A stretch of DNA of 64,000 bases, taken from the NCBI GenBank assembly GCA_965216755.1, contig CBDCGL010000011.1, forward strand, positions 512,001 to 576,000, read 5' to 3'. The notes below the pieces were generated by a model, which was not told the DNA's origin, ran no database searches, and saw nothing but the letters and a program-made list of their open reading frames with translations. The position numbers and the translations under genes are program-made. This document shows positions 11,929-17,136 of the stretch, piece after piece. Within the stretch, counting starts at the first letter, position 1. The number at the start of each line of letters is the position of its first letter. The DNA is from Alphaproteobacteria bacterium (GTDB lineage Bacteria; Pseudomonadota; Alphaproteobacteria; UBA7887).

Positions 11929-12083
11929 ATTGGGTTTTGGCGCCGGAGATTTTTTCGTTGTTCCCTAACCCCCCTTTCGGAAGCGCTGCGTGTTTAAGGG
12001 CAGACCGGCAAGACACGGTCACGCCATCACCAACAACGCAACGTCACCAGCAACACATCAACGCTTCTTAGGGGACTTGACCA

Positions 12084-12596
12084 ATGAACGCACTTCTGAA
12101 GATTTCCGCCGCCGTCGCCGCTTTGACTGTGGTTTCCGTTTCGGCCGCCTCGGCTGACGACATCAACTTCGACTTCACCAAAGTTAAGCAAAAAGCCGCC
12201 GTCGTGAACGTTCTGTCGAACAACGACTTCGGCCCCGGTACCGGCGCCAAGAAGGGCGGTTTGACGGTCAACGGTGTGGTCCAGGACGCGGTCATCGCCG
12301 AAGGCAATGCCACGGTCGCGGTCGGCAACTACGCCGAGGCCTACACCCGCATCGGTACGCTCGAGAACGGTGAGGTCAACGGTGTTCTGCAACGTGCCGT
12401 GATCGCCAAGAACAACGTCAACGTCGCCGCCGGCAACTATGCCTACAGCCGCTTGCACATCGGCACGGCGCGTGACTTCGAGATCAACGGTGTCGTCCAG
12501 CAGGCCGTGATCGCCAAGGACAACGCGGTCGTTTCCGTCGGCAACCACACCACCGCTTGCATGGAAATCGGCACGCTCGGCACCCCCACCTGCTAA
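12084..12596 (+). CDS. Secreted hypothetical protein with three 36-aa beta-rich repeats and a C-terminal Cys pair
   Basis: AGGGGA SD at 12070-12075, Sec signal peptide (ASA|DD, 24 aa), repeats at an exact 108-nt period, strongly biased codon usage and its own terminator. Confidence 0.93.
   Translation: MNALLKISAAVAALTVVSVSAASADDINFDFTKVKQKAAVVNVLSNNDFGPGTGAKKGGLTVNGVVQDAVIAEGNATVAVGNYAEAYTRIGTLENGEVNGVLQRAVIAKNNVNVAAGNYAYSRLHIGTARDFEINGVVQQAVIAKDNAVVSVGNHTTACMEIGTLGTPTC
12264..12587 (+). repeat. Three tandem 108-bp (36-codon) coding repeats
   Basis: The Asn codon of the NGV motif falls at 12270, 12378 and 12486; 15 of 36 residues are invariant across the copies. Confidence 0.92.
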
Positions 12597-12621: not shown

Positions 12622-12663
12622 GGCGGAACCCGCGGCAAAGTCCCGGGTTCCGCCTTTCCATTT
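12622..12663 (+). terminator. Intrinsic terminator of the repeat-protein gene
   Basis: 11-bp stem GGCGGAACCCG (12622-12632) / CGGGTTCCGCC (12644-12654), then TTTCCATTT. Confidence 0.75.
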
Positions 12664-13068: not shown

Positions 13069-13499
13069 CGTCCAAGCAATTCCTTCATCCAACACGCGAT
13101 CAGACTCAATCATGGCGATTGTGCCACTGTCCGCCAGGTTCATCACGGCATCAATGTTGGCCTTTGTTTCCCTGCCATGACTTTTGGGCGGCGACATGCA
13201 TCAAATGCTTGGATCGTGGCCGACTCCTTGCTAAGTCATAGGGGCATTGTCCGGGGCCGGGGTCAGCACGGAATGTCGCAACCTGTCGAATGACAGTGTT
13301 CGCCCGATAAACCGTAACGCCTTGCGCCTATGTTTAAGTGCCGGCACAGTGCGCGTGCAAACGCATCCCGCATAGAGGTTTCACGATTGATGGTGCGTTC
13401 GGTGCCATCGCGCAAACGATTGCGGTGGTTACCGGCATGCCGGGTTGATTGAGCAACGCACGCGAGGCGAATCAGAACGCAAGGGGAGGCAATTGGCCC

Positions 13500-14360
13500 A
13501 TGCGATACGAGGCTCCCACAACGGTTGACGACGCGGTAGCGTTGCTCGCAAATGGACAAGGTATGAATAAGGTCCTGTCGGGCGGCACGGATTTGCTCGT
13601 CCAACTACGCGCCGGCTTGATCGAGCCGGATCTTATCGTCGATATCAAGAAAATCGACGAAATGCGGTCGATCAGCGCCGAAGATGGCGGTTTTCGCATT
13701 GGTGCTGGTGTAACCGGTGCCGAGCTCGGCGAACATCAGGCACTAAAGGCAGCTTGGCCCGGAGTCGTTGAGGGCACGGAGCTGATTGGTTCGACGCAGG
13801 TTCAAGGTCGTGCAACCATCGGCGGCAATTTATGCAATGCCTCCCCGGCTGCCGACAGCGTCCCGGCGATGATTGCCGCAGGCGCCATTGCCTCGGTGGC
13901 GGGGCCGAACGGTCGTCGCGATGTGCCAATTGAAGACATCGTCACCGGACCAGGACAGACCTCACTGGCAAGGGATGAAATCGTTGTTTCGTTCTTCCTG
14001 CCGGCGCGACCGGCTCATGCGGGCGACGCCTATCTGCGCTTCATTCCACGGACCGAAATGGATATCGCGGTGGTTGGGGCTGGCGTAAATCTGGTGCTCG
14101 ATGCGGGCGGCACGTGCACCAACGCACGGGTGTCCTTGGGCGCGGTCGCGGCGACGCCTTTGTTGGTTGCAGAAGCGGCCGATGCGCTGATCGGTACCAA
14201 AGTCGATGATGCGGCCTTGGACAAGCTGGCCACGGCAGCGAGCGCGGCTGCCAAGCCGATTGACGACAAACGCGGCACCAAAGAGTTTCGAATTAAGGTT
14301 TCCGGCGTATTGGCTCGAAGGGCGGCAAAGCAAGCGCTTGAGCGGGCGGGGAGTCACTAA
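13500..14360 (+). CDS. Xanthine dehydrogenase-family FAD-binding (medium) subunit
   Basis: SGGTDLL, IGSTQV, ATIGGNLCNASPAADS and DDKRGT motifs. ATG follows GGGGAGG. Confidence 0.92.
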   Translation: MRYEAPTTVDDAVALLANGQGMNKVLSGGTDLLVQLRAGLIEPDLIVDIKKIDEMRSISAEDGGFRIGAGVTGAELGEHQALKAAWPGVVEGTELIGSTQVQGRATIGGNLCNASPAADSVPAMIAAGAIASVAGPNGRRDVPIEDIVTGPGQTSLARDEIVVSFFLPARPAHAGDAYLRFIPRTEMDIAVVGAGVNLVLDAGGTCTNARVSLGAVAATPLLVAEAADALIGTKVDDAALDKLATAASAAAKPIDDKRGTKEFRIKVSGVLARRAAKQALERAGSH

Positions 14361-14836
14361 TGTCTAAAATTCACGTCACGACCACCGTCAATGGTGATGA
14401 GGCCGAGTTCTTGTGCGAGGCCGACGAAACGCTCTTGGACGTGTTGCGCGACCAGTTGCATCTGACCGGCAGCAAAGAGGGTTGCGGCTCGGGCGACTGT
14501 GGCGCATGTAGCGTGATGCTGGACGGCCGATTGGTGTGTTCGTGCTTGGTGCTGGGCGCCGAAGTTGGTGGCCGCGCGGTGGAGACGATCGAAGGCATGG
14601 CCGACGGCGAAAAGCTTCATCCCTTGCAACAGCGCTTCTTGGATCATGCGGCGCTGCAATGCGGTATCTGCACACCTGGTTTCCTGATCGCGGCAAAGGC
14701 ATTGCTGGAAAAGAACCCGGATCCAACCGAGACAGAAGTACGGTATTGGCTGGCCGGGAACCTGTGCCGCTGCACGGGTTATGACAAGATCATAAGGGCC
14801 GTCATGGACACGGCCGCCGAGATGAGAGGATCGTGA
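14360..14836 (+). CDS. Xanthine dehydrogenase-family 2x[2Fe-2S] (small) subunit
   Basis: GCGSGDCGAC...SC and QCGICTPG...NLCRCTGY motifs. Confidence 0.94.
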   Translation: MSKIHVTTTVNGDEAEFLCEADETLLDVLRDQLHLTGSKEGCGSGDCGACSVMLDGRLVCSCLVLGAEVGGRAVETIEGMADGEKLHPLQQRFLDHAALQCGICTPGFLIAAKALLEKNPDPTETEVRYWLAGNLCRCTGYDKIIRAVMDTAAEMRGS

Positions 14837-14838
14837 CC

Positions 14839-17136
14839 ATGGCATCCCAAGTCAGTCCGAAAGAGAAAGATCTGAAATGGGTCGGGACACGCGCGCCGCG
14901 CCCTGATGGCGTGGACAAGGTGACAGGCCGGGCCAAGTTCGGTGCGGATTTGTATCTACCTGGCATGCTGGTCGGCAGGGTGTTGCGCAGTCCGCACGCG
15001 CACGCGCGCATTCGCTCGATCGATATTTCGAAAGCCGAGGCCATACCGGGCGTGAAAGCCATCATCACCCGCGATGACTTTGCGGATATGGAGTCCGAGC
15101 TGGTGCCGGCCGGCGAAATGATGGTCAACTACCGCGACGTCGTTCGCAATGTCATGGCGCGCGAAAAAGCTCTGTACGATGGTCATGCCGTTGCCGCGGT
15201 GGCAGCGACCAGCGCTGCCGCGGCGCGTAAGGCGCTCAAGGCCATCGAAGTTGACTACGAAGTGCTGCCGCACGTCGTCAACGTGTTGGACGCGATGAAA
15301 TCGGATGCCCCAATCCTTCATGAAGACATGATCACCGTGGGCGTCGACCCGGCGCCGGCCAAGGCGTCAAATGTGGCGAAAGTCATCGAGATTGGCATCG
15401 GCGATGTTGCGACCGGATTTGACCAGGCCGATGTCGTTCTGGAGCGCGAATACGATACCGAGGCCGTGCATCAGGGCTATATCGAACCCCACGCCTGCGT
15501 TGCCAGTGTGTCAGAGGACGGACAGGCTGAGTTGTGGTGCTGCACACAGGGCCATTTCGTTGTGCGCGCGTTTTGCGCGCGGCTCCTGGGGATGGACATA
15601 TCCAAGATTCGCGTGACCGCGTCCGAAATCGGCGGCGGTTTCGGCGGCAAGACGGTTGTCTATTTGGAACCACTGGCATTGGCCCTGTCGCGAAAAGCGT
15701 GCCAGCCGGTGAAAATGGTCATGACCCGCGACGAAGTGTTTCGTGCCAGCGGCCCAACTTCGGGCGCCAACGTTTGGGTCAAGATCGGTGCGACCAGGGA
15801 CGGCAAGATGATCGCGGGCGAGGCTGTCCTCAAATATCAAGCTGGCGCATTTCCGGGGTCGCCGGTGCAGCCGGGTGCCATGTGCGCGTTCGCGCCCTAT
15901 GACATGGAGAACGTGAAAGTCGTCGGCTATGACGTCGTCACCAACCGACCGAAAGTGGCGGCATATCGTGCGCCCGGCAGCCCGATCGCGGAATATGCCG
16001 TCGAATCGTTGGTCGATGAGCTGGCGAAGGAACTCGGCAAGGATCCTGTGGCGCTGCGTTTGCAGAATGCGGCGAAGAAGGGCACACAGGCCGCGTATGG
16101 GCCAAAGTTCGGCGATGTCGGCTTGGTCGAGACCCTTGAGGCCGTGAAAGAGCATCCACACTATAAGGCGCCGTTGGGACCGAACCAGGGGCGTGGTATC
16201 GCTTCGGGATTCTGGTTCAACATTGGCGGTGAAACCTGTGCATCAATTAGCATCAATGAAGATGGTTCGGCGATGTTGCAGGTTGGAACACCGGATATCG
16301 GCGGTTCGCGCGCGTCCATGTGCATGATGGCCGCGGAGGAACTGGGTATGGATTTGGACAAGATCCGCCCGGTGATCGCGGATACCAGTGCCCTCGGCTA
16401 CACGTTCTTGACCGGTGGCAGCCGGGTCACGTTTTCCAGTGGCATGGCGGTGGTCCAAGCGGCACGCGACGTTATCGATGAAATGCGTGCCCGAGCAGCC
16501 AAGACATGGGATATACCGGTAGATGCTGTCGAATGGGACGATGGCTACGCCCGGCCAACCAGCAGCAATGCTGGGGATTTCGAACCTTTGTCGCTGGCGG
16601 ACATTGCCATGAACGCGGGAAAAACCGGGGGGCCGATTGCTGGCCATGCGCAAATTAACGCACAAGGTGCTGGGCCAACTTTTGGCACGCACTTGGTTGA
16701 CGTCGAAGTGGACAAAGAGACCGGTCGGGTAACGGTGGTGCGCTACACGGCTGTGCAGGACGCCGGCAAAGCGGTTCATCCAAGTTACGTCGAAGGCCAG
16801 ATCCAAGGTGGGGCCGTGCAAGGTATCGGTTGGGCCTTAAACGAGGAGTACATCTATAACGATGACGGTTGCCTCGATAATCCGGGTTTCCTGGACTATC
16901 GAATCCCCGTTGCGTCGGATGTGCCGATGATCGATGCCGTGATCGTTGAGGTGCCGAATACGCGTCATCCGTATGGCGTGCGCGGCGTTGGCGAGACGCC
17001 CATCGTGCCACCAATGGCAGCCATCGCGAATGCGGTCGCCGACGCGTTGGACATCCGGTTCACGCATTTGCCGATGTCGCCGCCTCATGTTCTGCACGAA
17101 CTTGAACGGAGCGGAACCAAAGTCGGCAACGGCTGA
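14839..17136 (+). CDS. Xanthine dehydrogenase-family molybdopterin-binding (large) subunit; substrate unknown
   Basis: HQGYIEPH, GGGFGGK, AYRAPG, EGQIQGG and GVGE motifs. Confidence 0.92.
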   Translation: MASQVSPKEKDLKWVGTRAPRPDGVDKVTGRAKFGADLYLPGMLVGRVLRSPHAHARIRSIDISKAEAIPGVKAIITRDDFADMESELVPAGEMMVNYRDVVRNVMAREKALYDGHAVAAVAATSAAAARKALKAIEVDYEVLPHVVNVLDAMKSDAPILHEDMITVGVDPAPAKASNVAKVIEIGIGDVATGFDQADVVLEREYDTEAVHQGYIEPHACVASVSEDGQAELWCCTQGHFVVRAFCARLLGMDISKIRVTASEIGGGFGGKTVVYLEPLALALSRKACQPVKMVMTRDEVFRASGPTSGANVWVKIGATRDGKMIAGEAVLKYQAGAFPGSPVQPGAMCAFAPYDMENVKVVGYDVVTNRPKVAAYRAPGSPIAEYAVESLVDELAKELGKDPVALRLQNAAKKGTQAAYGPKFGDVGLVETLEAVKEHPHYKAPLGPNQGRGIASGFWFNIGGETCASISINEDGSAMLQVGTPDIGGSRASMCMMAAEELGMDLDKIRPVIADTSALGYTFLTGGSRVTFSSGMAVVQAARDVIDEMRARAAKTWDIPVDAVEWDDGYARPTSSNAGDFEPLSLADIAMNAGKTGGPIAGHAQINAQGAGPTFGTHLVDVEVDKETGRVTVVRYTAVQDAGKAVHPSYVEGQIQGGAVQGIGWALNEEYIYNDDGCLDNPGFLDYRIPVASDVPMIDAVIVEVPNTRHPYGVRGVGETPIVPPMAAIANAVADALDIRFTHLPMSPPHVLHELERSGTKVGNG

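Follow-up and report, generated by a model that had tools for sequence, protein, structure and literature searches.

To our knowledge, studies of cargo secreted through channels of the CsgG/HfaB superfamily cover just two systems, curli and the Caulobacter holdfast anchor. In the amyloid system Fap, the secreted fibre subunit FapC carries three imperfect repeats of ~37 amino acids and a C-terminal Cys, and the channel FapF is a different kind of barrel from a CsgG/HfaB-type lipoprotein. In published accounts, CsgG is described as the exporter of CsgA and CsgB (PMC6707917, bioRxiv 10.1101/2022.07.20.500906, PMC4594475), and curlin repeats are defined as units of 23 ± 5 amino acids with two N-$-Psi-$-Psi-$-Q motifs and a Q-X10-Q kernel (PMC10192328). 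HfaB is presented there as a lipoprotein resembling CsgG that HfaA and HfaD, both amyloid-like, require to reach the cell surface, HfaA as a CsgA-like protein that forms sodium dodecyl sulphate (SDS)-resistant multimers, and the cargoes CsgA/B and HfaA/D alike as forming SDS-resistant polymers (PMC6707917; bioRxiv 10.1101/2022.07.20.500906). Here we analysed a gene for a small secreted repeat protein in a 64,000-nucleotide stretch of DNA (hereafter the window), which corresponds to C11:512001-576000 of its 5.0-Mb source genome, G000. An amino acid-identical twin of this gene adjoins a relative of the curli/holdfast channel, and the window gene is therefore probably part of an undescribed, widespread surface-fibre system.

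The twin, at G000:C11:3873285-3873794 on the minus strand, encodes a protein 100% identical to the window protein and is the middle repeat gene of an operon at 3.87 Mb of C11 (locus L006), the composition of which was established from Pfam matches and the reading of open reading frames (ORFs):

L006, minus strand: gene 1, extracytoplasmic function (ECF) sigma factor
L006:13265-14821 (= G000:C11 ~3875264-3876820), minus strand: gene 2, 518-amino-acid anti-sigma-like protein with a C-terminal DUF4384 domain
L006, minus strand: gene 3, repeat gene, member of the family
L006, minus strand: gene 4, 102-amino-acid secreted protein with two Cys
C11:3873285-3873794, minus strand: gene 5, repeat gene, twin of the window gene
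L006, minus strand: gene 6, 100-amino-acid secreted protein with two Cys
L006, minus strand: gene 7, repeat gene, member of the family
L006, minus strand: gene 8, ~500-amino-acid lipoprotein with a CsgG/HfaB-like domain, PG_binding_1 and DUF4384
L006, minus strand: 121-amino-acid secreted protein, downstream of the lipoprotein
L006:6131-7519, minus strand: autotransporter (beta-domain) of 462 amino acids with a ~180-amino-acid passenger, two genes past the lipoprotein

We read the window gene as coding for a Sec-exported cargo or structural subunit that would work with a CsgG/HfaB-type outer-membrane lipoprotein to build a surface solenoid fibre or anchor, and we put the probability of this reading at roughly 0.55. 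G000 has five close paralogues, to which a profile search added two divergent genes; the family thus numbers seven among 58,492 six-frame ORFs, and no stray hidden Markov model (HMM) matches occurred. The two divergent genes lie in a second system at C11:2.458 Mb, together with a small two-Cys gene and a lipoprotein, and a satellite at 2.82 Mb consists of one repeat gene and a small two-Cys gene. In whole-genome HMM scans, the CsgG-like lipoproteins appeared at no more than two places, C11:2.458 and 3.870 Mb, so that the first-pass annotation of the window, which had reported no csg or fap export genes near the repeat gene, was right for the window itself. An S41 (C-terminal processing) peptidase gene (L031:10850-12379, minus strand) adjoins the second system.

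The lipoprotein encoded at the end of the operon was compared with both described channels. A profile of its N-terminal domain (78 sequences) matched an HfaB-like profile of 20 sequences with an hhalign probability of 99.1% (E = 9.2e-19, 241 columns); the HfaB set came from 301 sampled genomes of the class, in which 8 genes exceeded the curated cut-off. The HfaB profile in turn matched E. coli CsgG at 98.9% (E = 1.5e-17), and direct comparison of an 81-sequence lipoprotein profile with E. coli CsgG gave 71% (E = 3.7e-5), the alignment being colinear over 229 columns that include the lipobox Cys, the D-E-T-G motif, the transmembrane-hairpin regions and the C-terminal helix. Among the 81 sequences the lipobox Cys is conserved in at least 90% and a GTKDMLI block is almost wholly invariant. 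On the strength of the profile matches and this colinearity, we place the N-terminal 280 residues in the CsgG/HfaB superfamily, as a distant but true member. At E ≤ 0.01, NCBIfam HfaB matched 65 of the 81 homologues, all far under its curated cut-off of 300 bits, and Pfam CsgG (curated cut-off 20.8 bits) matched 14. The two G000 lipoproteins scored 18 bits or had no match with CsgG, and 15.5 and 24.4 bits with HfaB; no HfaB match at E ≤ 1e-5 was found in G000. Judged by these sequence comparisons, the lipoproteins are remote CsgG/HfaB relatives, not equivalogs. Annotation pipelines differ in how they label the homologues: many carry 'curli ... CsgG', given independently by the Joint Genome Institute, and NCBI names them as DUF4384-domain or peptidoglycan-binding proteins.

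Two features set this lipoprotein apart from HfaB. It bears additional C-terminal domains (DUF4384 in 75 of the 81 homologues and PG_binding_1 in 45), and its loop after D-x-T-G falls short of that of HfaB by 9 residues and of that of CsgG by 12. In CsgG, this loop bears the Phe-ring constriction, after which comes a hydrogen-bond donor/acceptor, a feature that CsgG needs to translocate peptides (PMC4594475); no counterpart of the CsgG Y..NF constriction residues was aligned in the lipoprotein.

The association of the lipoprotein with its neighbours was then followed across genomes. One genome per species was scanned for lipoprotein relatives, which yielded 80 loci from Alpha-, Beta- and Gammaproteobacteria. 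A small two-Cys gene was detected by HMM in 72 of them, nearly always on the same strand and ending just upstream of the lipoprotein start, an arrangement shared with hfaA-hfaB, in which a gene for a small secreted protein directly precedes that of the lipoprotein; 2 of the 8 loci without such a gene have <460 nt of upstream sequence. S41 peptidase homologues adjoin the lipoprotein in four loci (L045, L046, L047 and L054), all four of which lack the small two-Cys gene. With the seed HMM, a repeat-family gene was found in 25 of the 80 loci, almost always on the same strand and 0.4–3 kb upstream of the lipoprotein, and five HMM rounds raised that number to 58. The loci added by iteration are those with the 29–33-amino-acid Q/N-rich repeats of Betaproteobacteria, and the link between these and the 36-amino-acid family is tentative because iterated profiles of low-complexity repeats can drift. 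A CsgG-family neighbour is a property of the amino acid-identical paralogue and of 25 to 58 of the 80 loci elsewhere, not of the window copy itself. Other operon components recur less often: the ECF sigma gene in 25 of the 80 loci, homologues of the autotransporter in 7 (L065, L068, L071, L074, L076, L085 and L110) and of the 121-amino-acid protein also in 7, and homologues of the anti-sigma-like protein in 3. An inspection of homologue neighbourhoods for a CsgG-like pore or an ECF sigma factor, as had been proposed in the first-pass annotation, led to an operon with both and to the recurrence of the linkage in three proteobacterial classes. Alphaproteobacteria host the holdfast anchor as well as the module, and the module differs from the anchor in occurring also in Beta- and Gammaproteobacteria.

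The betaproteobacterial modules encode long secreted proteins made of many 29–33-amino-acid Q/N-rich units (V.Q.QAGLLN.Q.M.IGNA..GGKSNV), situated both upstream and downstream of the lipoprotein (L070:5974-6606, L070:1032-2123, L081:9590-10825 and similar); no Pfam match, curlin included, was found for them. Closer to the source genome, 4 of 60 relatives of G000 have the lipoprotein and one of those four (G010) has the repeat family; no member of the family was found in the 56 relatives that lack the lipoprotein. G010, from the same taxonomic family as G000, has members with 5 and 9 repeat units (L027:3999-5471 and L027:3209-4072), so that the number of units is freely variable within one lineage; these longer proteins end with the same Cys pair as the shorter ones.

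The window protein itself is built as follows:

12084-12596, plus strand: coding sequence of the secreted repeat protein, stop codon included (170 amino acids; longest frame at this position)
12084-12155, plus strand: putative signal peptide, residues 1-24, ending in A-S-A (read by eye; family leaders aligned)
12156-12263, plus strand: non-repeat N-terminal segment of the mature protein, residues 25-60 (DDINFDFTKVKQK... and then a Gly-rich linker)
12264-12371, plus strand: repeat 1, residues 61-96
12372-12479, plus strand: repeat 2, residues 97-132
12480-12587, plus strand: repeat 3, residues 133-168, with the Cys159 codon at 12558-12560 (unit position 27)
12591-12593, plus strand: codon of Cys170, the last residue, which presumably pairs with Cys159 in a disulfide

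The N-terminus, with a Lys, a hydrophobic run and A-S-A ahead of DD, reads as a Sec signal peptide by its form; our reading by eye agrees with that in the first-pass annotation, and hydrophobic N-terminal leaders with A-x-A ends align across the family. The three gap-free 36-amino-acid repeats described there were recovered at residues 61–96, 97–132 and 133–168. They had been called exact, which holds for the period of 36 but not for the units, which are only ~50% identical: pairwise, 17–20 of 36 residues and 65–72 of 108 bases are the same. A count of columns likewise bore out the 15 invariant positions of 36 (..NGV.Q.AVIA..N..V..GN.......IGT....), which include three Asn, one Gln and three Gly. 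None of 100,000 residue shuffles of the 108-amino-acid core gave 15 or more invariant columns, the maximum being 5. Cys occurs solely at positions 159 and 170 and Trp is absent, as had been reported; Pro is present only at 51 and at 168, the latter being the final residue of repeat 3 and thus at the edge of the repeat. The two Cys would be expected to form a disulfide. Residues 25–60 are conserved among the G000 paralogues only and are missing in distant family members; by analogy with the N22 segment of CsgA, one may speculate that they serve in targeting.

That the protein belongs to a conserved, uncurated family of secreted repeat proteins was borne out by homologue and profile searches. 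A phmmer search over 1.84 billion representatives returned 17 proteins at E ≤ 0.001, of which 11 are small secreted proteins (124–234 amino acids) with a similar repeat, many of them ending in A-C-x-x-I-G-x-x-G-x-x-x-C; a further match is one of the paralogues. Four long repeat-rich matches (P0004, P0005, P0009 and P0013) were dropped on inspection since they consist of cadherin/immunoglobulin-like or other repeats and have no comparable 36-amino-acid unit. One more match is a chimeric fragment, P0003 (149 amino acids, on an 840-bp public contig), in which the first ~55 residues are 96–98% identical to the N-terminus of the window protein and the remainder is a membrane protein with a TauE/SafE-type domain (PF01925); it is either a chimera of assembly or gene calling, or a rearrangement in a related strain.

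In 59 family proteins with 178 units (1–9 per protein), 72 of 122 spacings between units have a period of 36 and 38 have a period of 37. Each unit shows three runs of alternating small-hydrophobic and variable residues (unit positions 2–12, 15–21 and 24–33) with G/N-rich turns between them; Gly4 and Gly31 are invariant across units and Ala19, Gly21, Ala/Ser26 and Ile/Val30 nearly so. This pattern of conservation is what would be expected of a three-stranded solenoid rung. The terminal Cys pair noted in the window protein proved to be a feature of the family: units were detected in 54 members, and of these 42 contain two Cys, no more and no fewer, whereas 12 contain no Cys at all. Where present, the pair is always in the last unit and, in 38 of the 42, consists of a Cys at position 27 and another 8–13 residues later. 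The small protein encoded next to the lipoprotein also has exactly two Cys in 75 of 77 members, 30–41 residues apart (mode 36); the second is the penultimate residue in 71 of 76 and, in the examples printed, is usually followed by Lys or Arg.

No relative of the repeat protein was found in Pfam, NCBIfam or the PDB. Pfam gave no family at E ≤ 10 for the window protein, NCBIfam gave none apart from meaningless sub-threshold matches (HetF, UmuD-like and PRK08296), and searches of PDB sequences with the single protein and with a 33-sequence profile returned nothing below E = 0.1. Several features are shared with curli: the partner is a CsgG-superfamily lipoprotein, the cargo has imperfect N/Q/G-rich repeats in variable number and would be Sec-dependent to judge from its leader, and tandem genes for major-type subunits are accompanied by one for a smaller accessory secreted protein. 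However, the curlin repeat, with ~23 ± 5 amino acids, two motifs and two strands in the published definition, differs from a unit of 36–37 amino acids with three alternating segments, which probably form three strands; the module cargo has a conserved Cys pair, its channel lacks the constriction loop that bears the CsgG Phe ring in the description cited above, and its regulation appears to be by an ECF sigma factor, not by CsgD as in curli. Compared by description only, FapC resembles the window protein in having three imperfect repeats of about this length, whereas the window repeats are contiguous, with no linkers, and the linked outer-membrane component is a lipoprotein of the CsgG/HfaB type.

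Common ground with the holdfast anchor is the N-terminal domain of the lipoprotein, a homologue of HfaB, and the anchor (HfaA, HfaB, HfaD and HfaE) has a cargo that forms amyloid-like multimers (PMC6707917; bioRxiv 10.1101/2022.07.20.500906). Since the gene of the repeat protein is linked to a channel of this superfamily just as the curlin and HfaA genes are, and since the protein matches neither curlin nor HfaA in profile comparisons, it probably works like those cargoes while belonging to neither family. On our reading, the module is a third, undescribed branch of CsgG/HfaB-type secretion with the window protein as its cargo. The functional-amyloid proposal of the first-pass annotation can be kept in part: the family and its linkage to a CsgG/HfaB relative are real, but homology to CsgA, CsgB or HfaA could not be found at the sequence level.

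Curli and the Caulobacter holdfast anchor, taken as analogues, suggest a mechanism in which the subunit would be exported by Sec, acquire its disulfide in the periplasm and traverse the outer membrane by way of the oligomeric lipoprotein. At the surface, each 36-amino-acid repeat would form one three-stranded beta-solenoid rung, giving rise to a fibre or an anchor layer. The ~100-amino-acid two-Cys protein, with its Cys about one repeat length apart, might act as a nucleator or adaptor at the pore, and the ECF sigma factor and anti-sigma-like protein would be the regulator. Polymerisation of the subunit, taken alone, is a possibility that we rate somewhat short of even odds, because the terminal disulfide might cap the end of the solenoid. 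A more elaborate scheme is doubtful and is offered as a speculation: a third type VIII-like branch, spread over Alpha-, Beta- and Gammaproteobacteria, in which a channel minus the Phe-ring constriction and plus peptidoglycan-binding and DUF4384 domains would export disulfide-stapled subunits of 36-amino-acid three-stranded solenoid rungs, possibly partly folded, the two-Cys protein (mode 36 residues between its Cys) would amount to one rung closed by a disulfide, by which the fibre is templated or anchored at the pore, and the ECF/anti-sigma pair would sense the state of the machinery through DUF4384.

Several results weigh against the reading of the window protein as an exported fibre or anchor subunit. 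Genetically, no genes of the system were found beside the window copy within the flanks examined, no repeat gene was found within ~7 kb of the lipoprotein in 22 of the 80 loci even after iteration, and the iterated count may itself suffer from profile drift. The direct similarity of the lipoprotein to CsgG is weak, the Pfam CsgG matches (E = 0.0019 and 0.0082) being under the cut-off, and a PDB search with a 4-sequence lipoprotein profile returned peptidoglycan-binding domains only and no CsgG chain. As most of the constriction loop is missing, the lipoprotein may not act as a CsgG-type peptide channel. Comparison of the cargo with its presumed counterparts was also unfavourable: a profile comparison with CsgA, which the first-pass annotation had suggested, gave no match, since hhalign probabilities of the family and single-unit profiles with E. 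coli CsgA and CsgB were <1%. The repeat family and the small two-Cys protein gave ≤2% or signal-peptide-only matches with CsgA/B/C/E/F, and no csgE, csgF or csgC homologue was thus recognised by hhalign with the small protein. Neither the repeat family and its unit profile nor the small two-Cys family gave more than signal-peptide matches or <1% with a 7-sequence HfaA alignment; no relation to HfaA was detected by hhalign for either protein, and NCBIfam gave no HfaA match for either. Finally, the solenoid fold and the stacking of subunits are suggested by sequence periodicity alone, and the disulfide conserved at the C-terminus might just as well cap the end, which would argue against open-ended polymerisation.

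The most probable alternative is one that we consider unlikely but a serious contender: the protein would be exported by the CsgG/HfaB-like lipoprotein and would stay a monomeric or lipoprotein-tethered surface beta-solenoid, its C-terminal rung capped by the disulfide, serving for example as an adhesin or as a matrix-, polysaccharide- or ice-binding module. The linked genes speak for it just as they do for a fibre subunit. A Cys pair that is always in the last repeat and comes as two or none (42 vs 12 of 54) fits a structural end staple, most members have only 2–3 units, and the non-repeat N-terminal segment of the G000 paralogues could cap the other end. However, the known cargoes of the superfamily form SDS-resistant polymers (PMC6707917; bioRxiv 10.1101/2022.07.20.500906), a variable number of units (1–9) and tandem paralogues are typical of fibre subunits, and the staple is absent from those 12 members.

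It is a good deal less probable that the protein does not cross the outer membrane and acts in the periplasm as a partner or ligand of the DUF4384 domains that the lipoprotein and the anti-sigma-like protein carry, for instance as an envelope scaffold tied to peptidoglycan or as a signal of the ECF pathway. The peptidoglycan-binding and DUF4384 domains of the lipoprotein would indeed be periplasmic, the anti-sigma-like protein has its DUF4384 after a membrane segment, disulfide-bonded proteins are typical periplasmic residents and, with the CsgG constriction loop largely missing, the lipoprotein may not function as a channel. Against this, the colinear HfaB/CsgG homology spans the regions that form the transmembrane hairpins of CsgG, and seven cargo paralogues, and family proteins with up to 9 repeats, are hard to explain as a regulatory ligand. 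That the protein is a divergent curlin (CsgA/CsgB) or a divergent FapB/FapC of Pseudomonas is highly improbable, since the likeness to imperfect N/Q/G-rich repeats, to the three repeats of about 36 amino acids of FapC and to a cargo with a CsgG-superfamily partner is superficial and is set against the empty Pfam and near-empty NCBIfam searches, the hhalign values of <1% with CsgA/CsgB, a period of 36–37 in place of the 23 ± 5 given for curlin (PMC10192328), and a partner lipoprotein of a type from which FapF differs in its barrel.

With a surface subunit as the preferred reading, the window gene would be an additional copy of a cargo gene. The window and operon copies differ by 2 synonymous third-position changes over 693 nt, and the duplicated stretch runs from -121 to +571, the final base of the stem of a terminator-like hairpin:

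11963-12083, plus strand: upstream region duplicated with the gene (identical to that of the middle paralogue of the operon trio from -121)
~11983-12022, plus strand: conserved ~40-nt element (GCGCTGCGTGTTTA..GGCAGACC..GACACGGTCA; consensus GCGTGTTTA-N3-GCAGRCC-N-GACACGGTYA)
12070-12075, plus strand: Shine-Dalgarno-like AGGGGA
12622-12663, plus strand: terminator-like hairpin (stem 12622-12654) and then UUUCCAUUU; the duplicated cassette ends at 12654

With only these two synonymous changes from upstream region to terminator, the window carries a cassette, promoter to terminator, that arose by recent copying or conversion, and its gene is a self-contained orphan duplicate, of recent date, of the middle subunit gene of the operon. 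The conserved upstream element is common to 4 of the 5 close paralogues, with the equivalent sites lying upstream of those at C11:2824502, 3872711 and 3873890, and its core, GTGTTTA.{2,4}GCAG, has 6 matches genome-wide, 4 of which are upstream of repeat genes. It is a candidate promoter or operator, possibly of ECF type; a promoter scan found no sigma-70-type promoter upstream of the window gene. The hairpin is predicted to fold with -28.2 kcal/mol (z = -4.16, with none of 200 shuffles equally stable), and it was not among the listings of a simple terminator scan. Under this shared element, the window copy would raise the dose of the main subunit.

If the reading is correct, a third module would be added to the superfamily, one that has a subunit family of its own, a small two-Cys protein as conserved partner and a channel of different build. 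It occurs in three proteobacterial classes and, judged by record titles, in symbionts (Thiodiazotropha) and lineages from activated sludge and soil; cultured carriers include Noviherbaspirillum autotrophicum, Methylibium rhizosphaerae and Allohahella marinimesophila. No description of the module was found in the literature accessible as open-access papers and on bioRxiv. Should the subunits form surface fibres, more kinds of bacterial functional amyloid, and of matrix or adhesion structure in uncultured groups, would be known, and a CsgG-type pore without the constriction loop would be of interest for secretion mechanisms and for nanopores.

The anti-sigma-like protein of the source operon is so called because the start of its gene overlaps the stop codon of the sigma gene; no match to classical anti-sigma Pfam domains was found for it. 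Its N-terminus holds three cytoplasmic repeats of ~40–45 amino acids (LYE..DPI.WD..DDAIL.YAK-like), which are followed by the membrane segment, a Q/N/A-rich coiled coil and the C-terminal DUF4384.

In the window, the repeat gene is surrounded by genes for a TetR regulator, an alpha/beta hydrolase, a DUF1272 protein and a molybdenum hydroxylase. The last of these is a three-gene operon just downstream (window positions 13449-17136, plus strand), unrelated to the repeat gene, which encodes the FAD-binding, 2Fe-2S and molybdenum-cofactor subunits of an enzyme of the carbon monoxide dehydrogenase/xanthine dehydrogenase type.

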